A stretch of DNA of 64,000 nucleotides from a candidate division CPR2 bacterium GW2011_GWC2_39_35 (GTDB lineage Bacteria; Patescibacteriota; CPR2). Position 1 is the stretch's first letter. The number at the start of each line of letters is the position of its first letter. The position numbers were made by a program, and so were the translations under genes. The stretch covers positions 153,284 through 217,283 of the forward strand of contig LBWX01000003.1 of assembly GCA_000995065.1 (NCBI GenBank), written 5' to 3'. A model generated the notes under the pieces. That model made no database searches. It saw only the letters and a list, made by a program, of their open reading frames with translations, and was not told the origin of the DNA. Shown here piece by piece: positions 1-57,721 of the stretch.

Positions 1-203
1 ACAAAAGAGATCACATATCTTACAAGCAATACATTTACTTATATCACAGTCTACTGCCGGGGTTAGATAAAAACCAACATTATCGTGGGAAAAATTTAGA
101 CATTTCTGGGGACACTTTTCGACACAAACCCCGCAACCTTTACACTGATCCAAATCGATGGTCCATTTTTTATCGGAACTTTCAAACGTCACGGGTTTAG
201 GCA
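1..203 (-). CDS. porD: 2-oxoacid:ferredoxin oxidoreductase delta subunit (4Fe-4S ferredoxin), 3' part truncated by window edge
   Basis: Reverse-strand translation from ATG at 203: MPKPVTFESSDKKWTIDLDQCKGCGVCVEKCPQKC...CIACKICDLFC, with two CxxCxxCxxxCP ferredoxin motifs; immediately downstream of gamma subunit. Confidence 0.6.
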
Positions 204-790
204 TGTACCTCCTCCTCTCTCGTTTCCCGAAGTTCATTTCGAAGCATTGTTATCCCGGCATCCAAAGCTTTAAAGTTTAATTGATGCATCGCCGGATTAT
301 TTAAAACCTTAGCCCCTAATTCTTCCTCTAGGGCTTTTCTTACGATTTCCTTCGTTAAACCATCTACCAAACTTGTAATAGCACCTAAGTAAATTACGTT
401 AAAAACTTTTAAAGTTAAGAATTTCTCTGCGTATTCCTTAGCATCCATTCCGATTTTCTTACAATTTATGTGTTCGACATCCTTTTTAGAAATCTGGCCT
501 CTCTCGTAAATATAAATTGTTTCCGGAGTTACGTATTGTTCTGTTCTCTTGACGGCTCTTTTACACAAAACTACCAAGATATCGGCTTTAGCAAATTTAG
601 GAAATGGAATCTGATGAGTCGAAATCTGATTAAAACCAACCGAAACTCCACCCCTCTGTTCAACTCCATAATTTGGAATATAAGTAGTTTTTCTACGCGC
701 CAAAAAAGCGGCAATGGTAAGGGTTTTACCAATTACCTGAACTCCTTGACCGCCCTCACCGGTAACAATTAATCTTAAAGGTTTTTCCAT
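197..790 (-). CDS. porC: 2-oxoacid (pyruvate/2-ketoisovalerate):ferredoxin oxidoreductase gamma subunit
   Basis: 197 aa; LIVTGEGGQGV N-terminal motif typical of POR/KOR gamma; operon context with alpha/beta/delta. Confidence 0.75.
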   Translation of the reverse strand: MEKPLRLIVTGEGGQGVQVIGKTLTIAAFLARRKTTYIPNYGVEQRGGVSVGFNQISTHQIPFPKFAKADILVVLCKRAVKRTEQYVTPETIYIYERGQISKKDVEHINCKKIGMDAKEYAEKFLTLKVFNVIYLGAITSLVDGLTKEIVRKALEEELGAKVLNNPAMHQLNFKALDAGITMLRNELRETREEEVHA

Positions 791-796
791 AATATT

Positions 797-1063
797 TTAG
801 GCCCCTTTTAACGAGAGTTTAACAATAAAAAACCAGAAGATCGCCGCCACAAAAAACAAACTAACGATAATAAGACTAGCTGATAAAAACTTAGATTGCA
901 CCACCCTGGCATCTTTAAAATGAGCATAGCCAAAAACCGCAAATGCCACACAAACCGCAACCAATAGCGACAAAACAAGATTAGTAAAAATAGGCGCTAT
1001 ATCCTTTGCAATATCACCTATTTTGCCCATTATTTGTACTATTAAGTCAGCTTGTTCCGTCAC
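797..1063 (-). CDS. small hypothetical membrane protein (2 predicted TM) inserted between POR beta and gamma genes
   Basis: 88 aa ORF with two long hydrophobic stretches; overlaps beta-subunit gene end by 17 nt. Confidence 0.4.
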   Translation of the reverse strand: MTEQADLIVQIMGKIGDIAKDIAPIFTNLVLSLLVAVCVAFAVFGYAHFKDARVVQSKFLSASLIIVSLFFVAAIFWFFIVKLSLKGA

Positions 1064-1769
1064 GATTAATCTCTCCTAATTTGTAAACTTCTTCCATAGT
1101 TTTTAGAAATTCAAACGATCCTTTGGCATCGGTTTTCCAATTTGTGGGACAAATTGACAAAGCTTCCACAAAGGAAAAGCCCTTACCTTCCATCTGATGA
1201 GTAATGGCCTTTTTAATATATTTTTTAAGCGTCATCGGGTTAGAGACTGAACCTCTTGCAATATATAAGTCACCATTTCCGATTTGAGATACTAATTCCG
1301 GCCCCATTAAAGGGCTTTCCAAGGTAAAATCACCGTTTGGTGTACTATCGGTAACTTCATGAGGCATTGTAGTTGGTGCCGCCTGACCTCCGGTCATAGC
1401 ATACAAAGTATTATTAACCGTAATGACCGTAACATTTTCTTGTCTTAAGGCTGAATGAAGCAAAGATTGAAGCCCGATAGCATATGCTCCGCCATCACCG
1501 GTATAAGCAATAACGACCGATTTTGGATTGCCTCGCTTTATTCCCACAGCTACCGGAGTTGTCCGGCCATGATGGGTCTGCACCGTATCGACATCATAAA
1601 AATCCCAAGCTAGAAGCGAGCAGCCGATATCTATGGAGAAAACCGCATCTTTTTGAATACCCAATTCGTCAATAGCCTGACCAAGCATTTTTAAAACTAT
1701 GCTATGTCCGCATCCTGGGCAAAATTTTGCCGGCTTTGTTTCTTTTTTATAACAACTCGGCACGCTCAT
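1047..1769 (-). CDS. porB: 2-oxoacid:ferredoxin oxidoreductase beta subunit (TPP-binding)
   Basis: 240 aa; CPGCGH Cys motif and GDGG TPP-binding region; overlaps alpha gene by 4 nt. Confidence 0.85.
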   Translation of the reverse strand: MSVPSCYKKETKPAKFCPGCGHSIVLKMLGQAIDELGIQKDAVFSIDIGCSLLAWDFYDVDTVQTHHGRTTPVAVGIKRGNPKSVVIAYTGDGGAYAIGLQSLLHSALRQENVTVITVNNTLYAMTGGQAAPTTMPHEVTDSTPNGDFTLESPLMGPELVSQIGNGDLYIARGSVSNPMTLKKYIKKAITHQMEGKGFSFVEALSICPTNWKTDAKGSFEFLKTMEEVYKLGEINRDGTS

Positions 1770-2818
1770 AAAACCTCCTGAATCTTTTCTAAGGCTTCTT
1801 CCGGAACAATACCTTCTGCCGGTTTAAAATAGGAATAATATTCGGCCTGGGTGGCTCCAAATAATGCGTCTCTTACTAGCTTTGCAAATTGGCCATGAGC
1901 AGCCTCTATTACCATTATTTTCTTAGCTTTTCTGACAGCTTTTATCATGGCTTCTTTTGGAAGCGGTCTTAAGGTGATTGGCCTAAATAAGCCAACCTTC
2001 ATTTTCTGCTCCCGAGCCATACTTACCGCCGCTTTTACGGCCTCAGCGACGCTGCCATGGGCAAAAACAATAAGTTCCGCATCACCGCAGTATAGCTCTT
2101 CATATTCGACTATTTTAGGACTCATTTTATGAAAATCTTCAATATCTTTATTTAAAACCTCTGCCAATTCATCTTCTAGACTATAACAGTTGCGGATATT
2201 TACATACTCGCCTTTTTCGATCCTTTCTTTGTCCTGCAGCATCGGCTTTGCATCTATGGTTTTTCCTTTGTGATAAATAACTTCGCCAAAGGTTTTGCCA
2301 AGATATCCATCGGACAAAATAAAAGTCGGGAAACGATAACGCCAGGCCGCATCGAAAGCTTTAAAAGTATAATCATACAACTCCTGAAGATTTCCGGGAG
2401 AATAAACAATCCTCATGCCTTCGCCATTTCCACCATGAGCGGTTAAAAAAAGCTCTTGCTGAGAAAAAATGACGGTACCAGTAGACGGGCCGCCGCGCTG
2501 AGCAATGTAAGTAACAATCGGGATTCTCATCGCCTCGGCCATAGCTAAAGAATCTTGCATTAAAATGTTTCCGGGACCAGCCGAAGCTGTCCATGCTTTT
2601 TTCCCTGCAAGAATACCGCCAATTGTTGCGAAACCTGCTGCAATCTCGTCTTCTGTCTGAAGAAAAACCAAATCTTTATCGACATCAGCACGCTTCGCCC
2701 AACCAGCTAAGATTTCAGTTGAGGGAGTTATTGGATAACCGCAGAACATGGATGCTCCGGCATCTATTGCAGCTTCGACAACAACTTCATTTCCAATTGC
2801 TAGGACCTTGTTCACCAA
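1766..2818 (-). CDS. porA: 2-oxoacid:ferredoxin oxidoreductase alpha subunit
   Basis: 350 aa; N-terminal GNEVVVEAAIDAG.. CGYPITPSTEI motif typical of POR/KOR alpha. Confidence 0.85.
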   Translation of the reverse strand: MVNKVLAIGNEVVVEAAIDAGASMFCGYPITPSTEILAGWAKRADVDKDLVFLQTEDEIAAGFATIGGILAGKKAWTASAGPGNILMQDSLAMAEAMRIPIVTYIAQRGGPSTGTVIFSQQELFLTAHGGNGEGMRIVYSPGNLQELYDYTFKAFDAAWRYRFPTFILSDGYLGKTFGEVIYHKGKTIDAKPMLQDKERIEKGEYVNIRNCYSLEDELAEVLNKDIEDFHKMSPKIVEYEELYCGDAELIVFAHGSVAEAVKAAVSMAREQKMKVGLFRPITLRPLPKEAMIKAVRKAKKIMVIEAAHGQFAKLVRDALFGATQAEYYSYFKPAEGIVPEEALEKIQEVL

Positions 2819-36364: not shown

Positions 36365-38446
36365 TTACCTTACCACTATCCCCGTGTTTCCAAACCAGCT
36401 CCACTTGGCCGCAAACGTATTAACATCAAAAGTTTTTGACGGATAACCATAACCAGAGTCATTTACCACAAAAGATGTCGGATTCTGAACCGTTCCGGTA
36501 AAGCCTTTTACAACCTGAACATGCATCGAGTTCACCGCCCTTATCGCTCGCCCGTTATTTTGCCACGTAACTTCGTAAGCCGGCCAAACGCCATTTACCC
36601 ACCATATAATAATCGGGTTTCCGTTGGCAATTTCCTGGGCAATTCCCTGAACTGTCCAACTTTGTTTTACTTCGACAGTCCGGTATTTAGACAAAGCCTT
36701 GGCTACCGGGTCCCAATGCGATCCATAACCCCAGCCCGGAGCTGTATTGCCGTCGATATCCCCCACAAAAGCGGCATTTGGGTCGCCCCAAGTAGCGTTA
36801 GCATCTCGCCAAGTTCCCGACCAAGTTGTCGGATCGTAACCCATCAGACCAACAAATTCTAGCTCGCCCACAGAAAGGCCCCGGTAGGAAAGTGCGTCTC
36901 TGGCAGCCGCCGCCATGCACGTATAAAGATGACTCTGCCTGTAAGAAGGAATGTTTAAAACAATAGATTGCTCCTTCGTTGTAAAAATTGCGCTAAATGC
37001 CTGAATTGAATCTAAACCATAAACTGCTTTTACGCCGGAACCAATAGATACCGCATAATTTTGACTGTATAAAAAACCACCATGCGAAAACACCATCGTA
37101 TTTCCATTCCAGCTAAAGCTTCCGTCTACTTTTGGCGTTAAAGCAAAACTGTCTTCGGCTGATTTATGATCCACCGCCTGATTAAAAGTAATTGAGATTT
37201 TAGTTCCGATGTCGACATTCCGAGCGCTATTTGCCGGATAAAAACCGGAGACAGTAACATAACCGATTGTAGTAAATGAATAAGAAAGACCGCTCTCAAA
37301 TAAGCTTTCATCGGCCGCCTTAGCCTCTTTAGAAATAGAAACAGTGTATTGGGTATTCTTTTCCAATGGGTTTTTGGGTAGAAACTTTAGAAGCCGATTC
37401 CCTTCCCAGCTAAAACCGCCATCCGCTTTCGGGGTCAAGCTAAAAGCTTTCTCCGTAGCTTCCTTATTCATGTCTTGTTTAAATTCGACTTGAATGTTGC
37501 TATTTGCCAAAACACCGCTACCGGTTGGCGAGTAAGAACTAACACCGGGCGCATCAATGGTTCTAAAAGAACTCTTACCTACTTCTTGTTTCTCGCTTAA
37601 AACACGAGTTTTTTTAGTATTATAATTATATACCGTAAGCGTCCTTAAAACCGTCAATGTATAATCTGTTCCTTTGGACAAATTTGACTTTGGCTTAAGG
37701 ATATATTTGAGGCCATCCTCCGCTACTTCTAGTTCTGCTGGCGGGCTTAATTCGAAAGAAAACTGAGCCAACTCATTATGAGACACATCTGTTAAGATAA
37801 CAATCTCCTGTTTTGGCAGTACCCCTTGAACACCGTTTGCTGGCTCTACAGCGGTAACTTTAGGTATGGGAGAAGTGAGAAAACTAAATAAATAATTCTC
37901 TTTTTTAACTCCGACAATATTTCTGATTTCTGTTAAAGACACTGTGTACCTTGTCTCCATTTCCGGGGTTTCTATCGGAATAAAACTTAAAGCACTTGAT
38001 CCGCTGTAAAGGTTAGTCTTAAAGTTCCAATTTCCTCCAAGCTCCGGACTGATCGAATATTTAAGATTTTCTTTACGAATAGGGCGATCAAAATTGATCA
38101 CTAATGGCTTGTCCTTAGTCACTTCTGTAACACCTAGAGCAGGTTCGCTTGGAAAAACTACCTTAGGTTGAGGCACTACAATACCAGCAACTAAGCCCGC
38201 AAACCCCAGAAAAAGCCCGATATTAATATATAATTTCACGTTAACCAAAAGATAAAGAAAAATACGAAGAAAATATTTAACGCGGTACAAAAGGCTAAAG
38301 TTGGCATCAAGCTCCGGCTTTTTAATCTGCTTTAACCAATTTAATAAAAGTAAAGCATTATAAATAACCATAAGAGACATAATAATAAGAAGAGAAATTT
38401 TTAGAAAGTTGGGGTTTAACAAAAATTTAAATAACTCTTTTAGCAT
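36365..38446 (-). CDS. exported protein with tandem Ig-like (SbsA-type) domains and C-terminal C39-like papain-fold cysteine peptidase domain
   Basis: 693 aa; N-terminal TM, repeated TPKADGGFSWEGN / TPKVDGSFSWNGN modules, C-terminal QSHLYTCMAAAARDAL ... HVQVVKG Cys/His arrangement. Confidence 0.55.
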   Translation of the reverse strand: MLKELFKFLLNPNFLKISLLIIMSLMVIYNALLLLNWLKQIKKPELDANFSLLYRVKYFLRIFLYLLVNVKLYINIGLFLGFAGLVAGIVVPQPKVVFPSEPALGVTEVTKDKPLVINFDRPIRKENLKYSISPELGGNWNFKTNLYSGSSALSFIPIETPEMETRYTVSLTEIRNIVGVKKENYLFSFLTSPIPKVTAVEPANGVQGVLPKQEIVILTDVSHNELAQFSFELSPPAELEVAEDGLKYILKPKSNLSKGTDYTLTVLRTLTVYNYNTKKTRVLSEKQEVGKSSFRTIDAPGVSSYSPTGSGVLANSNIQVEFKQDMNKEATEKAFSLTPKADGGFSWEGNRLLKFLPKNPLEKNTQYTVSISKEAKAADESLFESGLSYSFTTIGYVTVSGFYPANSARNVDIGTKISITFNQAVDHKSAEDSFALTPKVDGSFSWNGNTMVFSHGGFLYSQNYAVSIGSGVKAVYGLDSIQAFSAIFTTKEQSIVLNIPSYRQSHLYTCMAAAARDALSYRGLSVGELEFVGLMGYDPTTWSGTWRDANATWGDPNAAFVGDIDGNTAPGWGYGSHWDPVAKALSKYRTVEVKQSWTVQGIAQEIANGNPIIIWWVNGVWPAYEVTWQNNGRAIRAVNSMHVQVVKGFTGTVQNPTSFVVNDSGYGYPSKTFDVNTFAAKWSWFGNTGIVVR

Positions 38447-43999: not shown

Positions 44000-44980
44000 A
44001 TGAAAAAAACACTTTATTCATTCCTAGTCTTAGCACTCCTTCTTCCATCAGTAATTTTTGCAAGAGAAGCTAATGGAGAAGAATCAGGGAAAAATACCCC
44101 GACTCCAAGAGTAACTACTACTACCACCGAAGACGAAGATGTAAACGAAACTACTACTACAGCAACCCCGACTCCATCAAAAACAACTACCCCAAAAGTT
44201 ACTCCAAAAACATCAAAAGAAAGCCTGGAAGATTCCCTAAAAGCTTATAAAGAAGCAAGCGAAGCTAAAAAGCTTGAAAAGCTTAAAACTTTCGGCACAA
44301 AAGCGGTTGATAACAGAATCAAAGAGTTAAATAACATCATCTCTCAGATCGAAAAAAATAAGATGTTGGAGAGTGCTGACAAGACAGAACTTAAGACCGA
44401 CATCCAAAAAGAAATCGCAACCCTAGAAGCCCTTAAGGAAGAAATCACCAGCGCAACAGATCTCGAAACCCTAAGAACCTTAATTAAAAAGATCTATACC
44501 GATCACAAAATCTACGCTGTCGTTAAACCAAAACAACTGGCTATTTTAGCAGCTGCAAGAACAAAAGGCGCCGTCAATAAATTAGAAAATTTGGAAAAAA
44601 GGCTAGAAAAACTGATAGATAAAGCAAAAGACGATGGCAAAGACACTACCGCCGTAGAAAGCTATGTTACCGATTTTAAAGCTAAAACCGAACAGGCAAA
44701 AAGCTTAATCGATAAAGCAAAAGCTACTTTTAAATCGATGCCGATAAATGACCCCGCAAAAGCCAAGGTTTTAAGGGAAGAAGGCAAAGGATACCTAACA
44801 CAAGCTAAAGATCTTCTAAAACAAGCAGGCACCGATTTAAAGAAAATTATCGCTGCTTTAAAAACAGAAAAAAAGTCCAGTAATAGTAACACAGACGATG
44901 ACGATGATACTACTCCATCGACAACGCCAACACCATCTGCTACCCCAACCTCAACACCTACTCCAACAACGACCGAATAA
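44000..44980 (+). CDS. secreted coiled-coil protein with Thr/Pro-rich N- and C-terminal linkers
   Basis: 326 aa; signal peptide LLLPSVIFA, TTTTED..TPTPSKTTTPK and C-terminal DDDDDTTPSTTPTPSATPTSTPTPTTTE. Confidence 0.5.
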   Translation: MKKTLYSFLVLALLLPSVIFAREANGEESGKNTPTPRVTTTTTEDEDVNETTTTATPTPSKTTTPKVTPKTSKESLEDSLKAYKEASEAKKLEKLKTFGTKAVDNRIKELNNIISQIEKNKMLESADKTELKTDIQKEIATLEALKEEITSATDLETLRTLIKKIYTDHKIYAVVKPKQLAILAAARTKGAVNKLENLEKRLEKLIDKAKDDGKDTTAVESYVTDFKAKTEQAKSLIDKAKATFKSMPINDPAKAKVLREEGKGYLTQAKDLLKQAGTDLKKIIAALKTEKKSSNSNTDDDDDTTPSTTPTPSATPTSTPTPTTTE

Positions 44981-45286: not shown

Positions 45287-45793
45287 ATGACGCATATTAA
45301 TTTAATGAAAAAAGAAAGCCAAATTGTAAAAGAAATCGAAAGAATAGAACCAATCCTGCAGTTTACTCTTTTTAATTTTATCTTTATCATTCTTGCCGAA
45401 TTTTTATCCAATCTAATAATTAATTTTACAGCTAGCCTATATTATATGCAGCACGTGAGTAATGTTTTCGCGGACCTTCAAGTAACTCACAAGGAAATAT
45501 TTTCTTTTTCGCTCATTAAATTTTCCATCTTTCTTCTAATAATATACCTGGTAAACCACCAATTAATGAAATATGTTAAATTAAAAATAAACCCGGAACA
45601 ATATGTATTTTCTTTCAGCGGCGTATTATCGGTAATATTTATTACGACAAATTTCAATATGAATCAGGGCGCCATGAAGAACTTTACCGATTTTAGCAGT
45701 GTAATTGCCGTGCTTTCAGTTGTAATCATTACTTTTACCGGAATCCTCCTTTCTCTTCCAAAAAAACCTAGGACAATAAGAAAAGAAGCTTAA
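45287..45793 (+). CDS. hypothetical membrane protein
   Basis: 168 aa; ~4 hydrophobic helices; RBS ggaggt 8 nt upstream. Confidence 0.5.
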   Translation: MTHINLMKKESQIVKEIERIEPILQFTLFNFIFIILAEFLSNLIINFTASLYYMQHVSNVFADLQVTHKEIFSFSLIKFSIFLLIIYLVNHQLMKYVKLKINPEQYVFSFSGVLSVIFITTNFNMNQGAMKNFTDFSSVIAVLSVVIITFTGILLSLPKKPRTIRKEA

Positions 45794-46181: not shown

Positions 46182-46577
46182 ATGGAGGGTATGCTCGCCA
46201 AAAGTTTAATATTGTCTCTTCTTAAATGGTGGTATTTTGAGTCGCCGAAACAATTTTTGACACTTGCCAAAATGATTGCCAGAAAAATAATGGATAGCCT
46301 TTCTATTTCGATTATTTTAAGGACATTCTTTAGCCCTTGGAAGAAAGTCACCTCTTATAAACATAATAATTCACTAGAAGAACGAGTAAGGGCATTGGAA
46401 GACAATGCTGTTTCGAGGCTCGTAGGAGTGGTTATGAGATCGGCAATCTTAATTCTGGCTGCTCTTTTTATAGTTTTTTACATAGTAACATTGATGCTTG
46501 GCTCGATTATTTGGATCATTTTTCCGACCTTGCCGATTGCTTTAGCATTTTATAGCCTGGGATTTATTATCTCATGA
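46182..46577 (+). CDS. hypothetical membrane protein, translationally coupled (ATGA overlap) to Clp-type ATPase gene
   Basis: 131 aa; C-terminal two TM helices; stop overlaps downstream start. Confidence 0.5.
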   Translation: MEGMLAKSLILSLLKWWYFESPKQFLTLAKMIARKIMDSLSISIILRTFFSPWKKVTSYKHNNSLEERVRALEDNAVSRLVGVVMRSAILILAALFIVFYIVTLMLGSIIWIIFPTLPIALAFYSLGFIIS

Positions 46578-49048
46578 ATGAATCCACTACTACAAAACAA
46601 ATAATCATTAATTTTAAAGACCCCATTTTCGCGCTTGCAAAAATCAATAAAAAGCTTGGCAGTCCCAGATTCAAGTCGATTTCTAATATTATTATAATAG
46701 TAGGCATCATTTTCTTTGCCCTAATAAATATCCTTAAGTTAAGCGATTTTTTGATGTTTTTTGCTATAAATCTGCTAGCTATAAGCACATTTCTTATTAA
46801 CCTAAAGCTTTATTTCGACCTAAAAATTAAAAACTATGTCCCAAAAATTGAGATTTCAGTTTTAGCTGAAAAGCAAAGTCTGGGGAATCAAATCGATATC
46901 AGTCCGGTTTTAAACTTCGAAGCCGCTTTGCTTCTAAAAACAAATTGGGGCAATACCTTGGAGTCAATCTTTTTAAAAATTTGTCAAACCAGAGAAGCAA
47001 GTTTTATTTTGTATAAAGCTGGTCTTAGCACCCAATATTTTTCGGGGCTAAAAATTGATGCTTCCATAGAGGAAATACTAAAAAGAGCCCTCGAATCGGC
47101 CGCAAAAAATAACCAGCGCTTTATTTATATTAGTGATTTATTCTGGGGATTTGCCTCATCTTCTAAGATAATTCAGGATACCTTCTATAAAGCCGAACTG
47201 GACACTAAAGACTTGGAAAACCTGATATTTTGGGAAAAGACCCTGATGGCCAGAACTGAAGCTAAGAGCTTGCTTGATCCGGAAAATTGGACCTCAACCG
47301 GCGGTATTGCTAAAGACTGGTCTTCGGGATACACAATTTATCTGGATCAGTTCGGCAAAGATTTAACCAGTATGGTGTCTGGCGGATGGCTTAACTTTTC
47401 GGTTGTCTCGAGAGAAAACCTAACTAGAGAGATGGAAACCGCCCTTTCTAAGCAGCACAGCCATTTAATTATGGTTGGCGAAGCCGGCGTTGGCAAAAGA
47501 GCGCTCGTTTTAGAATTTGCCAGGAAAGTGCTGCACGGCAAGACTTTAGATCATCTTAATTTTAAAAGAATAATCGAGATTGATACAGGGCTTCTGGTCG
47601 CCGGCGCTCACGATAATGAAGGCGAGATTGAAACCAGGCTACAATTAATTCTTAACGACGCGGTAAAAGCCGGGAATGTTATCATTTTTATCGACAATAT
47701 CCATTCTATTTTTATTAAAGATGGCTACGGAACAGCTAATCTTTCTCAAATCTTAATTCCCTATCTAGAATCGGGCCGGCTTCAGTTAATAGGCGCCACC
47801 AATCTCGAAAGCTGGCATAAGATAAGTGCCAATTCCAACATTTCTTCGTTATTTAATAAACTCGAGGTGCCGGAAACAGACAAAAATCAAACTTTAAAGA
47901 TCCTTCAGGACTTAAGCTTCAAATTCGAATATAAATATAAGATTGCTATTACTTATCAAGGCCTGAACGAAACTTACAACCTGGCAAAAAAATATATTCC
48001 TTATGAGTTCTTCCCGGCAAAAGCAATTGATCTTTTGGAAGAAGCTGCTATTTTCTGCCAGAATAAAAGATCAAATTACTTAACCCCGGAATTGTTAAAA
48101 GAAGTGGTTTCTAACAAAACAAGCATTCCTGTTTCCGAAGCAAATGATGACGAAAAGAATGTTTTATTACACTTAGAACAATTTTTGCATGAACGGATTG
48201 TAGGTCAAGACAAAGCTATAAAGACAGTTGCTAGCGCCTTAAGAAGAGCAAGAGCCGGCTTAAAGAACGATAATAGACCGGTAGCATCATTTTTGTTCTT
48301 GGGCCCTACAGGAGTCGGGAAAACGGAAACCTGCAAAGCCCTGGCTAAAGCCTACTTTGGATCCGAAAGAAACATGTTAAGGCTTGATATGTCGGAATAC
48401 CAAGAAGTTTCAGCTATTCATAAGCTTCTTGGCAGCGATCAAGAAGCTGGCGGATATCTAACCAAACCTATTAGGGAAAAACCTTTTACCTTAATTTTAT
48501 TAGATGAAGTCGAAAAAGCACATCCGGACATCTTAAACCTCTTTCTTCAGGTATTAGATGATGGCCGGATTACAGATAATTTGGAAAGAACAATCGACTT
48601 TACCCACGCTATCATCATTGCTACTTCGAACGCCGGTTCGGAGCTAATTAGAGAACATTTTATGAGTAGCAATGCCGATACTCACGAGTTCGGCAAAATC
48701 CTTATCGATAAACTCTTAAAAGATGGGATATTTAAACCGGAATTCTTGAACAGATTTGACGGCGTCATCACATTTACCCCTCTATCCAAAGAAGAAATAA
48801 ATGCAGTAGCCAGGCTTTTAATAAAAGGGATAGCAAGACAGCTCGACGAGAAAGGCATAGCCCTTAAGGTAACAGACGGGGCTATAAATAAACTTTCCGA
48901 ATTGGGTTTCGATCCGGCTTTTGGCGCCAGGCAGATGAGAAGAGTTGTCCAAGATAAACTAGAAGATTTTATAGCCGAAAAAATCCTCGGCGAATCTTTA
49001 GAAAGAGGCGATTCTATTACATTTGATGTTGAGGATATCAAGGGATAA
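46574..49048 (+). CDS. Clp/Hsp100-family double-AAA+ ATPase with N-terminal transmembrane segments; first ATPase domain degenerate
   Basis: 824 aa; 2 N-terminal TM, Clp_N-like repeats, D1 Walker A GEAGVGKR (T->R) and Walker B IIFIDNIH (E->N), intact D2 Walker A GPTGVGKT and Walker B LLDEVEKAH. Confidence 0.75.
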   Translation: MNESTTTKQIIINFKDPIFALAKINKKLGSPRFKSISNIIIIVGIIFFALINILKLSDFLMFFAINLLAISTFLINLKLYFDLKIKNYVPKIEISVLAEKQSLGNQIDISPVLNFEAALLLKTNWGNTLESIFLKICQTREASFILYKAGLSTQYFSGLKIDASIEEILKRALESAAKNNQRFIYISDLFWGFASSSKIIQDTFYKAELDTKDLENLIFWEKTLMARTEAKSLLDPENWTSTGGIAKDWSSGYTIYLDQFGKDLTSMVSGGWLNFSVVSRENLTREMETALSKQHSHLIMVGEAGVGKRALVLEFARKVLHGKTLDHLNFKRIIEIDTGLLVAGAHDNEGEIETRLQLILNDAVKAGNVIIFIDNIHSIFIKDGYGTANLSQILIPYLESGRLQLIGATNLESWHKISANSNISSLFNKLEVPETDKNQTLKILQDLSFKFEYKYKIAITYQGLNETYNLAKKYIPYEFFPAKAIDLLEEAAIFCQNKRSNYLTPELLKEVVSNKTSIPVSEANDDEKNVLLHLEQFLHERIVGQDKAIKTVASALRRARAGLKNDNRPVASFLFLGPTGVGKTETCKALAKAYFGSERNMLRLDMSEYQEVSAIHKLLGSDQEAGGYLTKPIREKPFTLILLDEVEKAHPDILNLFLQVLDDGRITDNLERTIDFTHAIIIATSNAGSELIREHFMSSNADTHEFGKILIDKLLKDGIFKPEFLNRFDGVITFTPLSKEEINAVARLLIKGIARQLDEKGIALKVTDGAINKLSELGFDPAFGARQMRRVVQDKLEDFIAEKILGESLERGDSITFDVEDIKG

Positions 49049-49340: not shown

Positions 49341-49709
49341 ATGGCTTACTACAAATCAGTATTTACAAAATTATTCAGAGGTTTTTTTCTTGTAGGCACT
49401 TTTCATCTTCTTATTGCTTTAACTTATTTTGTTACCTTTCCGGTAAGCCAAGATTTTCTGGCAAATGCCGCATCGAGTATGGATTATGGCACTATCGATA
49501 ATTCCAATTTTGTATTCCTAATAAATTTTTTCATCCTTATTGCTAGTATCGGCCTTGCTATGCTTGCAAGCGTAACCCTAAAGCAGCTTGGATCGTCGAA
49601 AAATCAAATCAAAATCGCCCCACTTGTATTAGAACCGATAGAGATAGCTAAACCTCAAATTACAAAGGCCAAACAAACTCCAAAAAAGAAGATCATTATC
49701 CAGTTCTAG
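49341..49709 (+). CDS. small hypothetical membrane protein
   Basis: 122 aa; two hydrophobic helices. Confidence 0.45.
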   Translation: MAYYKSVFTKLFRGFFLVGTFHLLIALTYFVTFPVSQDFLANAASSMDYGTIDNSNFVFLINFFILIASIGLAMLASVTLKQLGSSKNQIKIAPLVLEPIEIAKPQITKAKQTPKKKIIIQF

Positions 49710-49844: not shown

Positions 49845-52052
49845 TTATTTAGATGCTTTTCGATATGCATTTATATTCTGAGAGTTCTGGCTTTTTTCGA
49901 TGCCGGTTTCCCAGGGAATAAAGAATCCAAAGGTACAACCTTTTCCTGGCTTACTATCAAAATAGATATTACCTTTATGGCCCTCTATAACTTCTTTTGC
50001 CAAAAAGAGACCAAGACCACTGCCATCCGGCCTTATTTGTTGGGCATTTGATCCCCTAAAGAATTTTTTAAATATATCTTTTTGTTGATCTCCCGGCACT
50101 CCAATTCCCGTGTCTTTAACAAGCACAATCATTCCCTTATCATCTTTGTCCACAACAACAGTAATCCCGCCATCTCTTGTATAAAAAATAGCATTTTCAA
50201 TAAAATTAGAGATTACCTGACCCATCTTTAACTTATCAATCATCATCTTCTTTCTCTTTCCAGTCAAAACTTCTAGTTTCAAGAATAACTGCCTCGACTC
50301 TGCCCTTTCCCTCAAATGAGCCACTTCCTCAGCCGCAATTTCCGCAATATCAATAAGTTCTCCCTGCATAAAGAATTTACCCGTATCAATCCTAGAAATA
50401 TTCAAAAGATCATCAATAAGCCTCTCCATTCGGGAGGTATTTAAATAAGCCTCCTGCATAGCATTGAGCTGTGTTACCGTCAGATCGCCGAAGTCTCCCT
50501 CCACAAGCATATGAAGATAACCCGCAATAGTGGTAAGCGGCGTTCTAAGCTGATGAGATGCCATTGCCAAAAACTGATCCTTTGCCTTATCCAATTCCTT
50601 TAAATGTTCATTAGCCCTTAAAAGTTTGGCCGTTGATTTTTCGACTTTTTCTTCTAGAGTACAGGCAAAATTTTTTATTTCTTCATATTGACAAGCATTC
50701 TGAATAGCCACGGTCAGCTGATTGGATAAAATATGTAATACTTTAATGTCCTCCGGGCTGTAACTTTCTCCGGATTTCTTATGCCCAATTAACATCACTC
50801 CGGCTAAATAAGATTTTGTTTTTAAAACAAAGCTTATCCCGCTGTCATATTTCTTAAGAAGCGCTTTTCTGGGATCTGAATCGGCTAACTCGTATTCATC
50901 AAGAAGCATCTTTGTCTTAAGCATGTCAAATTCTTTAGGTGTTAGTTTTATTAGCTTTCCGAATCCAACTGCGTAAGTATCTTTTAAGTTACCTTGCTCG
51001 TCGGCAATAGCAAATAAGATACGAGAAGTTTTGATGGTAATCTCAAGCGCTCTAAATACCTTGAACAAAATTTCATGAAGTATTATTGTTGAGCTTATTT
51101 CTTCGCCGATTTCATTTAGAAATTCTTCTGACCGATATTGATTTTTGAAGAAGAACTTGTCCGTAATCTTGGCAATGAAGATTTTTATTGGCTGAAAAGA
51201 AAAAATTAGAACTAATACCACGGCAATGCGAAAAATCTGATGCCCGATGCTCACCTCTTCGCCAAAGACCAAAACATTTGCGGCATATATAAAAGCGGTA
51301 TATGCAATTGCAAGAGTCATAACAAGAAGAAAGAAAGCAAATGACTTGACAAAAATTACCTTAATGTCTATCAGACGATGCTTTACAATAGCATATGCGG
51401 TAAAGCTCAAGAAAATGAGCGCTGAGTAATTGCCGATTGCCCAGAATTGGGGAATTCCCTGAAAAAAGGGCAAAATGACGTTAAAAATAAGATTTGCCAA
51501 AACCCACACGAAGAAACCAAATAGAAAATAAACGAGCTTAGCTCTTGCATTAGCTTTAGATTTAAAATAATTTACCAAAAAACGATAGGCAATATATAGA
51601 AACCAAAAAAATATCAATGAGAAATAAGCATATGCGCCCTTCCCCAAAACAGGAATAGCTCCATACTGCGTTACCGCCATGTTTTTTACCATGAAATTGC
51701 CGGAAATAGAAATAGTAAATAAAAAAAGGCTCGAAAATATTAAAAAGAAATCCATTTTAATATTTTTCTTGTATTCCTGTAAAAAAGAAGTAGAAAAAAA
51801 ATAGAAGGGGATAAAGAAAAGAGCGACAACACCATATGCAATTCTACCCCAAAGCGGATCCGTAGTAATAAAAATAGAATTTCCTAAATAACATGCAAGG
51901 ATCCACAAGAACAAAAAAAGCGAGGTCCAGAAAAAAAATACGTTCACCTTGAGTCTCGAGTTCGAGGAAAGAACCCAAAAACCGAGCCCCAAACAAAGTA
52001 TTCCAACTACGATTGTCAATATTGCGTTAATCAAAAAAAATGTTTCTGCCAT
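49845..52052 (-). CDS. sensor histidine kinase with N-terminal multi-TM (7TMR-type) sensor, GAF-like linker, HisKA and HATPase_c domains
   Basis: 735 aa; ~8 TM; H-box MASHQLRTPLTTI; G-boxes DTGIGVP.. GSGLGL. Confidence 0.8.
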   Translation of the reverse strand: MAETFFLINAILTIVVGILCLGLGFWVLSSNSRLKVNVFFFWTSLFLFLWILACYLGNSIFITTDPLWGRIAYGVVALFFIPFYFFSTSFLQEYKKNIKMDFFLIFSSLFLFTISISGNFMVKNMAVTQYGAIPVLGKGAYAYFSLIFFWFLYIAYRFLVNYFKSKANARAKLVYFLFGFFVWVLANLIFNVILPFFQGIPQFWAIGNYSALIFLSFTAYAIVKHRLIDIKVIFVKSFAFFLLVMTLAIAYTAFIYAANVLVFGEEVSIGHQIFRIAVVLVLIFSFQPIKIFIAKITDKFFFKNQYRSEEFLNEIGEEISSTIILHEILFKVFRALEITIKTSRILFAIADEQGNLKDTYAVGFGKLIKLTPKEFDMLKTKMLLDEYELADSDPRKALLKKYDSGISFVLKTKSYLAGVMLIGHKKSGESYSPEDIKVLHILSNQLTVAIQNACQYEEIKNFACTLEEKVEKSTAKLLRANEHLKELDKAKDQFLAMASHQLRTPLTTIAGYLHMLVEGDFGDLTVTQLNAMQEAYLNTSRMERLIDDLLNISRIDTGKFFMQGELIDIAEIAAEEVAHLRERAESRQLFLKLEVLTGKRKKMMIDKLKMGQVISNFIENAIFYTRDGGITVVVDKDDKGMIVLVKDTGIGVPGDQQKDIFKKFFRGSNAQQIRPDGSGLGLFLAKEVIEGHKGNIYFDSKPGKGCTFGFFIPWETGIEKSQNSQNINAYRKASK

Positions 52053-54957: not shown

Positions 54958-57135
54958 CTACGGTGTCGTAACCAGCATTCTTTTCTTTGGATCTGCCTTT
55001 ATTATAGATTTTATCGGAATTCTAAAGCCAAAAACCGAACCCTTGGAACTAGACCTAAAGATTATCTCGCCGCCATGATCTTCCACTACCCTTTTAGCCA
55101 AATAAAGGCCAAGGCCATTACCATCCGGACGCAAGCGCCTGGCGTTATCCGCCCTGTAGAATTTAGAGAACAATTTATTTTGCACTTCTTTTGGAACACC
55201 AATGCCGGTATCAATTACCTCAAAGACAAATTCGTGTTTATTGGCCGCGGCTCTTACAGTCACTCCGCCCTTTTCTGTATAATAAATCGCATTATCAATA
55301 AAGTTCATTATGACCTGACGAATCTTATTCTCATCGGCCTGAACGGTTGACATCTTTTTAGGGCACTCAAACTTAAGCCACAAGTTTTTGGTTCTAGCCT
55401 GATGCGCTAATTGTTTAACTTCATCAGCAATCATAACTTTCATATCAAGATCCTTGGGATCGATAAAGAATTTGCCCGTACTCATTCTGGACACATTTAG
55501 AAGATCATTAATTAAAGTCACCATCTTATTAGCGCCCTGAAATGCCTCATTTATAAAGTCAAACTGGCCAACCTTGATTTCTCCCGCATCCCCTTCTAAA
55601 AGCATGGATAAATAACCCTTAATAGCTGTAAGCGGAGTGCGCAGCTGATGAGATGCCATGGAGATAAACTCATCTTTTGCCTTGTCAAGTTCTTGCAGAT
55701 GGTCGTTAGCTTCGCGAAGTTTTTTGGTCTGACGCAAAACCTCCGCCTTCAAGGTGATGTTAAACTTCTGGATTTCCTCATACTGCTTGGCCCGCTGCAT
55801 CGCCATGGTAATTTCCGGCTCCACAATCTCTAAAATCTGGATATCTTTTGCCGCATACATATCCCCCGACTTTTTTTCACCCAAGAACAAAATGCCGGCA
55901 AATTGGTGATCCTCCATAAGCCTAACGGCTACCGAAGTCTCATATCTTCTTAAAATAGATTTGAGCCTGCTTCCTTCTTCTAATTCGTCATATACTGCAA
56001 TTGGAAAGCGGCTTAGATATTTAATGTCGCCGTATTCAACTTCCGGCGCTTTTTTGTAACCGATAGACTGAACAGAATGAATATGCCCTTCCTCTACTAC
56101 TACAAACATGCCTTCTAATATTTTAAATTGCTGCAAAATATGATCTAAGCTTTTATAAAGAAGCTCGGTTAAGACGATATTGGTACTTAAGATATGGTTA
56201 GTTTCCCTAAGAAAAGCATCCGGATCATACTGCTCTTTAAAGAAAATTTTATCCGTAACTTTGGTAAGAAATCTCCGTAATGGCTGAAAGGTAAAGGCCA
56301 TTACCATGGCAAGAATGATTTGGATGATTGTATGCGTCATAGAATAACCCTGCTCCGGAAAAAACAATCTCTGAACTGCAAAAATCGTAGTAGCATAACC
56401 CCCGGCAAGAATGATGACAAGCAGCGTATATGCCAAAGATTTGGCAACCACCATCCGAATGTCCATAAGACGATGTTTAACAATGGCGTAGGCTATGCCA
56501 CCAATCATAAAAACAAAACCATAAATCCCTAAACGATTAACTGTTTCATTAACTATCAACAGCCTAGGTATGATTAGGTTAGTTGAAATTGCAATTGTCG
56601 CAGATAAAGATAACCCCATTGTTATATAAAGTAATTGCGACCTAGCCACTCCTCGAGAAGAAGACAATTTTTTAATAAGAATAGTGATTCCCACAAGAGA
56701 TAAGGCAATTAACATGACAGAATAAATAATAAATAAAGGACCCTCTTGAAAATCTATGCCCATATCTTTAGAAAAATGTACGCTCTCAATAATGTACGAT
56801 GAATAAGCTAATCCAGAAAAAACAATTGAAGCTATTAACGATACTATCCAAAGAGTATTCTTTATCTTACTCTCAGACTGAAAAACCAAGCAGAAAGAAA
56901 AAAAGGTAAACGATGTGATTAGACCAAATGCAAAATCTGTCCTTACAAGATAACTAACTAAAGCAACATTCAATGTCTCGCTTTCAAAAAAAATAACCAA
57001 TGACCAAATAGATAACGCTAGTGTAAGCAAGAAGAAGATAAGGTTGGAGGGTTTTTTTGAATTTCTAGAAAAAACCAGGAGACCAAGAAACAAATTTAGA
57101 GAGACCGCTATAATTAAAAGCGCATAACTAATCAT
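54958..57135 (-). CDS. sensor histidine kinase, paralogue of 49845-52052 (multi-TM sensor + GAF-like + HisKA + HATPase_c)
   Basis: H-box MASHQLRTPLTAI; same architecture; start set at MISYALL (ORF-track start 57171 overlaps upstream gene). Confidence 0.8.
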   Translation of the reverse strand: MISYALLIIAVSLNLFLGLLVFSRNSKKPSNLIFFLLTLALSIWSLVIFFESETLNVALVSYLVRTDFAFGLITSFTFFSFCLVFQSESKIKNTLWIVSLIASIVFSGLAYSSYIIESVHFSKDMGIDFQEGPLFIIYSVMLIALSLVGITILIKKLSSSRGVARSQLLYITMGLSLSATIAISTNLIIPRLLIVNETVNRLGIYGFVFMIGGIAYAIVKHRLMDIRMVVAKSLAYTLLVIILAGGYATTIFAVQRLFFPEQGYSMTHTIIQIILAMVMAFTFQPLRRFLTKVTDKIFFKEQYDPDAFLRETNHILSTNIVLTELLYKSLDHILQQFKILEGMFVVVEEGHIHSVQSIGYKKAPEVEYGDIKYLSRFPIAVYDELEEGSRLKSILRRYETSVAVRLMEDHQFAGILFLGEKKSGDMYAAKDIQILEIVEPEITMAMQRAKQYEEIQKFNITLKAEVLRQTKKLREANDHLQELDKAKDEFISMASHQLRTPLTAIKGYLSMLLEGDAGEIKVGQFDFINEAFQGANKMVTLINDLLNVSRMSTGKFFIDPKDLDMKVMIADEVKQLAHQARTKNLWLKFECPKKMSTVQADENKIRQVIMNFIDNAIYYTEKGGVTVRAAANKHEFVFEVIDTGIGVPKEVQNKLFSKFYRADNARRLRPDGNGLGLYLAKRVVEDHGGEIIFRSSSKGSVFGFRIPIKSIIKADPKKRMLVTTP

Positions 57136-57721
57136 AAACAATTCCTCGTCTCCAATTTTTAACATAAACATTCTGAATTTGGTTTTGCTTATCAGGAAAT
57201 TTTGAATTACTAATTATATCGATAGCCTTTTTTTCAACACCTTTATATTTTAACTGTAATACATTTATTAATTCATTGCCAACAAAACCTTTTCCTTTAC
57301 TCTGATGATAGAAATTTAAATAACTATAATCTAATAGCCCTAGCCTTAAAAAGTACCACACAGATATGAGCAAAGAACAAGGAATATGACCCTCTTTATT
57401 ACTAATATAACTTAAGTAACTTCTTTTTGCTTTACCTTCGTTTATTAATTCAAAAAAAGGCTCTTTAAGCTTAACTAGCTCGGACTCAAATAGTACAAAA
57501 TCTGGCATAACGTTTGAATGCTCGAGATTGGATAAGTACTTATCTATGTTTAATTTCTGCCTTGTCGGATTATAATCATCAATTAAAAGTGCTAGACTAT
57601 AAGACAAACCTTTTTCGCCAATACTTATGGTTATGTCCTTAACTGCCGGGATCATACCATGAGAACGAATATTTTTTTCATCAATATAAATATGAGCAAA
57701 CTCAATGCTAAAACTTTCCAA
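57128..57721 (-). CDS. hypothetical protein
   Basis: 197 aa ORF, no recognisable motif. Confidence 0.4.
   Translation of the reverse strand: MESFSIEFAHIYIDEKNIRSHGMIPAVKDITISIGEKGLSYSLALLIDDYNPTRQKLNIDKYLSNLEHSNVMPDFVLFESELVKLKEPFFELINEGKAKRSYLSYISNKEGHIPCSLLISVWYFLRLGLLDYSYLNFYHQSKGKGFVGNELINVLQLKYKGVEKKAIDIISNSKFPDKQNQIQNVYVKNWRRGIVYD

Follow-up and report, generated by a model that had tools for sequence, protein, structure and literature searches.

The two-ring Clp/Hsp100 ATPases ClpA, ClpB and ClpC are the closest described relatives of the protein discussed here; ClpB and ClpC contain a middle (M) domain, and ClpA and ClpC a loop that docks onto ClpP. Several other AAA+ systems resemble it in part. 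FtsH is a bacterial AAA+ protein with two N-terminal transmembrane (TM) helices per protomer and a substrate-entry face directed towards the membrane; its single AAA ring carries an aromatic pore loop, and an M41 protease is fused to it. Pex1/Pex6 belong to a different AAA clade and form a soluble heterohexamer, a double ring in which the first AAA+ domain (D1) is inactive and the second (D2) is active, with aromatic D2 pore loops that are functional and thread the substrate; a small membrane protein, Pex15 or PEX26, serves as the anchor. The plant Clp homologues SMAX1 and D53 are soluble nuclear regulators that no longer serve as classical unfoldases. Torsins are membrane-associated proteins of the endoplasmic reticulum lumen that have a single AAA+ domain, hydrolyse ATP very slowly and depend on the membrane-protein partners LAP1 and LULL1 for an Arg finger. 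They are Hsp100 relatives without aromatic pore loops, and it is considered unlikely that they thread substrates (PMC5425593). Here we analyse a stretch of 64,000 nucleotides (the window) from contig LBWX01000003.1 of a candidate division CPR2 bacterium, in which a two-ring ATPase of 824 amino acids, of the Clp/Hsp100 type and anchored in the membrane, is encoded immediately behind a small partner protein of 131 amino acids.

Judged by its sequence, the ATPase has the defining features of neither ClpA/ClpC, ClpB, Torsin nor FtsH. It is homologous to ClpA, ClpB and ClpC throughout, with a remote Clp_N-type domain, a D1 with AAA_lid_9, and an AAA_2-type D2 followed by a D2-small domain, and its domain order, without an M domain, resembles that of ClpA. 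It differs from all three in possessing an N-terminal TM hairpin and an apparently obligate small membrane partner, in a D1 that lacks the Walker A Thr, the Walker B Glu, the Arg fingers and the pore-loop Tyr, and in the deletion of GYVG from D2; it has neither the M domain of ClpB and ClpC nor the docking loop of ClpA and ClpC. The two TM helices recall FtsH, but a Pfam scan of the ATPase found no peptidase domain. The inactive D1, active D2 and small membrane partner recall Pex1/Pex6, but without the aromatic D2 loops of that motor. SMAX1 gave a weak sequence match in a search of the PDB; unlike the plant proteins, the ATPase retains a fully equipped D2. The likeness to Torsins is functional only, with no sign of orthology. 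The ATPase has two rings and its own D2 Arg finger, and its partner, small and helical, is not a degenerate AAA+ fold. That Arg finger is present in 63/63 full-length homologues, each taken from a different Patescibacteria species-representative genome; this set underlies the counts out of 63 that follow.

The two gene products very probably form a conserved two-subunit membrane AAA+ complex that is neither a partner of ClpP nor a ClpB-type disaggregase. The first-pass annotation of the window had proposed that the genes are translationally coupled, and both reading frames, with their ATGA overlap, are indeed found where it had placed them. The coupling is supported, and conservation of the pair, natural fusions included, is much stronger than a single sequence could have revealed. 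When one genome per GTDB species was scanned with a profile of the partner family, 80 loci (L006-L085) were obtained. The ATPase gene lies directly 3' of the partner gene on the same strand in 75 of them and the remaining five run off the contig, so that all 75 informative loci agree. The spacing in these relatives is mostly -23, -4 or -1 to +9 nucleotides. Look-ups in the reverse direction, from ATPases that included the distant GIGKE, Clp_N-positive and near-canonical subgroups, found a partner-like gene of 115-134 residues immediately upstream in eight cases out of eight. The two proteins also occur naturally fused, the partner domain forming the N-terminal part of the ATPase chain, in P0016, P0022, P0023, P0027, P0029 and P0073 (hmmsearch E values of 1e-31 to 2e-6), in P0285, P0389, P0313 and P0378, and in locus L068 (4489-7203). 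An assembly artefact was considered for L068 and rejected, independent fused proteins having been found. Genes that are strictly adjacent and repeatedly fused are, classically, those of subunits of a single complex, and on this basis we regard the partner and the ATPase as probable members of the same assembly.

Domain matches and structural alignments clearly place the ATPase in the Clp/Hsp100 class-I superfamily, as a member with an N-terminal TM hairpin. Pfam identifies AAA_2 at residues 568-729 (1.3e-48), ClpB_D2-small at 737-816 (1.4e-20) and AAA_lid_9 at 437-513 (8.8e-11). D1 and D2 align with the solved structures of ClpB, ClpC and ClpA, the phmmer E value to ClpB in the PDB being 7e-126. 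The AlphaFold2 model (mean predicted local distance difference test, pLDDT, 87.4; predicted template-modelling score 0.78) superposes on ClpC and ClpB protomers, which are its top Foldseek matches. The protein falls under the cut-off of every NCBIfam Clp equivalog, with scores of 508.8 against 1232 for ClpB (TIGR03346) and 454.6 against 993 for ClpA (TIGR02639). Two N-terminal TM helices had been predicted from the sequence, and hydropathy, the AlphaFold2 model and positive-inside charge counts all agree with this; helices 31-54 and 58-85 are modelled with pLDDT of about 90. The Clp_N-like repeats that had been suggested behind the hairpin have no Pfam match to Clp_N but are borne out by profile-profile comparison. 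A family profile of residues 82-262 aligns with a canonical ClpC/ClpB N-domain profile in hhalign (96.2%, E value 2.6e-9) across both repeats, although the match is a remote one. The Lys/Arg counts are 6.6 for the N-terminal tail and 4.5 for the segment after TM2, and the N-domain of the partner carries 11.6 Lys/Arg against 3.7 Asp/Glu; these charge counts indicate that the soluble parts of both subunits face the cytoplasm.

The motifs on which the first-pass annotation had relied (GEAGVGKR, IIFIDNIH, GPTGVGKT and the LLDEVEKAH region, read here as LILLDEVEK) are all present in the 824-residue protein. From the GKR and DN sequences it had described D1 as catalytically degenerate. The alignments support a catalytically dead D1 and add two losses that had gone unnoticed, those of the Arg fingers and of the pore-loop Tyr, where the canonical KYRGEFE has become HDNEGE. 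Among the 63 homologues none has a canonical GK[ST] in the D1 Walker A motif and none has the D1 Arg fingers, and the pore-loop Tyr of D1 is likewise gone from the members examined; Walker B is variable, with DE retained in 26/63. The accompanying proposal, that D1 binds nucleotide without hydrolysing it, is doubtful, and D1 may or may not bind. The Walker A Lys is present in the window protein, but G-x-G-R-K is the usual reading among its relatives, all of which have lost the trans Arg fingers. We infer that D1 is retained as a structural, non-catalytic scaffold ring.

In D2 the Walker A and B motifs, sensor-1 (TSN), the Arg finger (NRF) and sensor-2 (GAR) are all intact in the window protein. 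Walker A, Walker B and NRF are found in 63/63 homologues and sensor-2 in essentially all of them, and D2 would be the sole motor of the assembly. The description of D2 as canonical holds for these ATPase motifs and fails for the pore loop, where the window protein reads LLGSD------QEAGGYLT against GSPPGYVGFDEGGQLT in canonical proteins and GYVG has disappeared. The six-residue deletion is common to 63/63 homologues; an aromatic residue occurs in the remnant of the loop in only 1/63, and the remaining residues vary. An unfoldase or extraction module, as had been suggested for the protein, presumes a threading motor, yet neither ring retains its pore-loop tyrosine. Alignment to ClpA, ClpB and ClpC, which the first-pass annotation had recommended, revealed neither a middle domain nor a docking loop. 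Where ClpB spans residues 391-521 the ATPase passes from residue 494 to 503, and ClpA aligns without interruption. The [IVL]G[FL] tripeptide of the ClpP-docking loop occurs in 0/63 homologues, and at the site of ClpC VGF and ClpA IGF the window protein has HFMSSNA.

Mean pairwise identity falls from 74% in the D2 large domain to 54% in D1, 43% in the N-domain and 37% in the TM region, an order that is in keeping with D2 as a constrained motor and D1 as a retained non-catalytic ring. The nearest database proteins are from Patescibacteria: one is identical, three of equal length show 54-55% identity and many show 30-42%. N-terminal TM segments are present in 52 of the best 120 database matches, and almost every one of these combines a degenerate D1 with the D2 loop deletion, whereas canonical ClpC and ClpB proteins without TM segments do not. 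The module is specific to and widespread in the ultra-small Patescibacteria (the Candidate Phyla Radiation, CPR). A few basal members retain a canonical D1 Walker A motif (P0025, P0032 and P0035) or a partial GAPPGY loop (P0025 and P0026); degeneration of the rings therefore appears to be later than attachment to the membrane.

The partner consists of a helical N-domain of net positive charge (residues 1-86) and a C-terminal hydrophobic hairpin, and is modelled by AlphaFold2 with pLDDT 86.4. The family consensus has a Lys/Arg-rich helical N-domain, a near-invariant KTFFSPW[RK][RK]Y loop and a hydrophobic hairpin of about 45 residues with Trp and Pro at its turn. In a 67-sequence alignment (A3) Ser51 and Trp53 of the signature are invariant and Thr48 and Phe50 nearly so; the loop comprises residues 48-64 of the model. 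The uncharged turn between hydrophobic segments a and b holds the invariant Trp111 and Pro115, and the helices of the model run from 65 to 113 and from 116 to 130. Segment b is short, with 13-15 hydrophobic residues and a 15-residue helix in the model, and may not span the membrane fully. The start of the partner is ambiguous. The ATG at 46182 gives MEGML, which matches MEGLL of the related CPR2-clade locus L001, and a second ATG at 46191 gives a protein of 128 amino acids, as in database entry P0121. The database twin of the partner is annotated as coming from a candidate division CPR2 bacterium. As a working definition, the partner of this module is a protein of about 125-135 residues with the motif FSPW[KR][KR] and a hydrophobic hairpin at its C-terminus, encoded next to the ATPase on its upstream side or fused to it, and the window pair fits this definition. 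We also note a conserved Glu in the first hydrophobic segment (GLLxE[IV]F) of most partners at loci L006-L085, which is absent from the window protein and from L001.

The partner family is previously unrecognised, with no model in Pfam or NCBIfam, and the window protein itself matched nothing in Pfam, NCBIfam, PHROG, PADLOC or the PDB. A word search with this sequence alone returned two relatives only. When it was aligned with the upstream open reading frames (ORFs) from the contigs of three ATPase homologues, one of which likewise overlaps the ATPase start as ATGA, the word search returned at least 449 proteins of the family. With the 67-sequence profile the family grew to at least 1,471 representatives (50% clustering), of which 1,064 had E values up to 1e-10. 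Every named match is patescibacterial, bears the label 'hypothetical' and is without a Pfam domain.

These observations lead us to favour, if only slightly, an obligate two-subunit, membrane-integral AAA+ machine that is driven by D2, has no part in feeding ClpP and probably works without threading its substrates. Taken by itself, the proposal that the ATPase is non-threading has, in our estimate, an even chance of being correct. The complex would be a hexamer, by comparison with the known hexameric structures of Hsp100 proteins. Since the N-domain begins only about eight residues after TM2, the N-domain/D1 face should lie against the cytoplasmic side of the membrane with D2 pointing into the cytoplasm, and the Lys/Arg-rich N-domain of the partner would sit beside this membrane-facing surface. 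The D1 ring would act as the assembly scaffold and the D2 ring as the only ATPase. ATP turnover in D2 would then drive conformational changes through the membrane-proximal N-domains, the TM bundle and the partner, with no processive threading. With aromatic pore loops absent from both rings and no means of docking ClpP, the complex would be described most simply as a non-processive, ATP-driven switch or remodeller at the membrane, operating in the manner of a Torsin with its cofactor. Its clients are probably membrane or envelope proteins.

The main rival to such a switch is a processive extractase or unfoldase of membrane proteins, similar to Msp1, Cdc48 or Pex1/6, which would work with unconventional pore loops, drawing its clients from the membrane through the ring and releasing them into the cytoplasm. 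The geometry would suit this function, with the substrate-entry face (N-domain/D1) held at the membrane by the eight-residue tether. The D2 hydrolysis motifs are strongly constrained, and basal members with partial GYxG loops imply a lineage that began as a threading motor. Nevertheless, conserved aromatic or bulky hydrophobic residues are missing from the pore loops of both rings, the D2 loop has lost six residues in every homologue, and to our knowledge all characterised threading AAA+ rings depend on aromatic or bulky hydrophobic loops. We therefore regard an extractase as unlikely. A membrane-localised disaggregase that works with DnaK, as ClpB does, is highly improbable. By sequence score ClpB is the best match in NCBIfam and the PDB, and it is likewise without the ClpP loop, but the ClpB equivalog score is 509 bits against 1232, the M domain that couples ClpB to DnaK is absent, the pore loops are missing and D1 is dead. 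The chance that we are dealing with an artefact, or with a decaying pseudogene carrying sequencing errors at its key motifs, is negligible. Nothing favours it beyond the unusual residues themselves and it is refuted by conservation: the 824-residue ORF is intact, an identical protein is known from an independent assembly, the homologues of 54-55% identity have the same length, and the model is confident. The residues at issue are non-canonical at the same positions in 52 database homologues and in all 63 species homologues, and the substitutions thus do not arise from sequencing errors, a doubt that had been raised when they were first noticed.

A membrane-tethered partner of ClpP, of the ClpA/ClpC type and equivalent to an FtsH with a separate protease, might be expected on genomic grounds. 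In the tables of Meheust et al. (2019, PMC6744442, Supplementary Data 1), 1,327 CPR genomes are reported to have ClpP, only 33 ClpX and 1,355 the one family labelled 'ClpC' (fam03231), so that a ClpC-type partner is needed, and annotation pipelines name the ATPases considered here ClpC. The membrane variant has evidently been lumped into fam03231. Against this stand the docking tripeptide, found in none of the homologues, the absent pore loops and the ClpA/ClpC-related NCBIfam scores far under cut-off. In addition, locus L088 has a canonical Clp gene (1-2495, minus strand, called as two ORFs) placed divergently beside the TM-Clp module, with Clp_N, NBD_SMAX1, AAA and AAA_lid_9 followed by AAA_2 and D2-small. 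As the two coexist in one genome, the module is not simply the ClpC of the organism, and we give very little weight to a role with ClpP. Equally hard to sustain is a role in anti-phage defence or conflict, as a module based on a Clp-like ATPase such as Dodola DolB. PADLOC does match the ATPase to DolB and PDC-M37B, but these matches cover the generic AAA_2 region only, and the defence reading was rejected for that reason. The partner matches nothing in PADLOC or PHROG and no effector domain is present; moreover, the pair occurs once per locus in a housekeeping context in many species, often directly upstream of mraZ-rsmH.

Some observations weigh against the non-threading machine that we prefer. 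The fused proteins mostly have three hydrophobic segments, namely partner segments a and b followed by a helix that aligns with TM2 of the ATPase, whose N-tail and TM1 have been lost. This conflicts with a simple two-hairpin model, and three segments would be topologically odd if all of them span the membrane. In the basal members P0025, P0026, P0032 and P0035, D1 is still near-canonical or part of the GYxG loop survives, from which it follows that the ancestor probably threaded, and residual threading by non-aromatic loops may persist.

In its boldest version, which we advance only tentatively and consider rather doubtful, the preferred reading would make the module the first Hsp100 to be integral to the membrane, built of two subunits, spread across the CPR and no longer threading polypeptides. 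Six copies each of the ATPase and the partner would place at least 24 helices in the membrane under a widened channel devoid of pore loops. Hydrolysis in D2 would gate, assemble or remodel a membrane target, making the complex a bacterial counterpart of the Torsin-cofactor pair or a conduit resembling Bcs1. A tie to envelope biogenesis and division is possible, as the pair is often beside mraZ, or alternatively to the episymbiotic lifestyle.

Table 1. Features of the partner-ATPase gene pair; positions are numbered from the first nucleotide of the window.
Feature	Position	Strand	Evidence
Small partner gene, 131 amino acids	46182..46577	+	ORF list
Partner signature motif TFFSPWKKVT, loop between helices; family consensus KTFFSPWRRY	46323..46352	+	Alignment A3
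Partner hydrophobic segments a (residues 87-110) and b (residues 116-131)	46440..46574	+	Hydropathy, AlphaFold2, charge statistics
ATPase gene, 824 amino acids, membrane-anchored, two-ring Clp/Hsp100 type	46574..49048	+	ORF list, Pfam, AlphaFold2, Foldseek
ATGA overlap of partner stop codon and ATPase start codon	46574..46577	+	Sequence read
Lys/Arg-rich N-tail of ATPase, predicted cytoplasmic, with conserved motif: window IINFKDPIFALAKINKK, family FNFNLKxAxIFQAVKWE	46574..46663	+	Model, charge counts
TM hairpin: helix 31-54, outer loop of 3-4 residues, helix 58-85	46664..46828	+	Hydropathy, AlphaFold2, charge counts
Divergent Clp_N-like N-domain, two repeats, about 8 residues after TM2	46853..47263	+	hhalign
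Catalytically degenerate D1 AAA+ module, followed by D2 without an M domain	47336..48073	+	PDB alignments
D1 Walker A GEAGVGKR (residues 302-309), Thr to Arg	47477..47500	+	PDB and family alignments
D1 pore-loop site AGAHDNEGE, without Tyr; canonical AGAKYRGEFE	47600..47626	+	PDB and family alignments
D1 Walker B IIFIDNIH (residues 370-377), Glu to Asn	47681..47704	+	PDB and family alignments
D1 Arg-finger site SSLFNK; canonical ERRFQP; both arginines lost	47843..47860	+	PDB and family alignments
D2 AAA+ module (AAA_2 and D2-small), catalytic motifs intact	48191..49033	+	Pfam, PDB and family alignments
D2 Walker A GPTGVGKT	48302..48325	+	Family alignments
Truncated D2 pore loop LLGSDQEAGGYLT; canonical PGYVGY stretch deleted	48425..48463	+	PDB and family alignments
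D2 Walker B LILLDEVEK	48491..48517	+	Family alignments
Position of the ClpA/ClpC ClpP-docking loop; window SELIREHFMSSNADTH, without [IVL]G[FL] tripeptide	48638..48685	+	PDB and family alignments
D2 Arg finger FLNRFD	48743..48760	+	Family alignments
D2 sensor-2 FGARQMRR	48920..48943	+	Family alignments

Across loci, only the partner-ATPase pair itself is universally conserved. Downstream of it and on the same strand, mraZ is found at 34 of the 80 loci, rsmH at 16 and an ftsL-like gene at 10, in loci of the Nealsonbacteria/Paceibacteria type. This position upstream of the division and cell-wall cluster offers a weak lead to the role of the module. A 115-residue protein with two TM segments lies directly upstream of the pair at 29/80 loci. 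Both this protein and mraZ were considered as a third conserved component and set aside; each is absent from the window, and so are rsmH and the ftsL-like gene. The absence of clpP from the neighbourhood, an earlier observation, is upheld by a Pfam scan of 35 window proteins in which no Clp protease domain was detected, and the window contains no second Clp ATPase. A scan for promoters and terminators gave counts that did not exceed those of shuffled sequence.

The pair is flanked in the window by a set of small membrane or secreted proteins that is common only with the closest relative, L001, and these are best regarded as clade-level neighbours. They comprise a Thr/Pro-rich secreted protein of 326 amino acids and two small membrane proteins (44000-44980, 45287-45793 and 49341-49709), which have counterparts of 48-56% identity in the L001 contig only and no family assignment. 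Just downstream of the pair are two membrane histidine kinases, paralogues of each other and about 735 amino acids long, with HisKA and HATPase_c domains (49845-52052 and 54958-57171, both on the minus strand). One of them has a HisKA_7TM N-terminus, and no response regulator was identified between them. Elsewhere in the window, 36365-38446 (minus strand) encodes a 693-residue protein of unusual architecture, which combines a weak pilin-like match at residues 279-358 with Big_5/Big_10 Ig-like domains and Peptidase_C39_2.

In full-text literature searches we found neither a membrane-anchored bacterial Hsp100 nor the partner family described. In current annotation the pipeline labels 'ClpC' and 'AAA family ATPase' hide the module in metabolic and proteostasis reconstructions. 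Patescibacteria have tiny genomes, in which conserved genes are likely to matter, and the module is among their widely conserved genes annotated without a function. The Clp/Hsp100 proteins are textbook soluble threading motors, and a non-threading Hsp100 has so far been argued for only in the case of the eukaryotic Torsins, the mechanism of which is still unsolved. If our reading is true, the module would show that the same scaffold can be reused in bacteria for a job other than threading.

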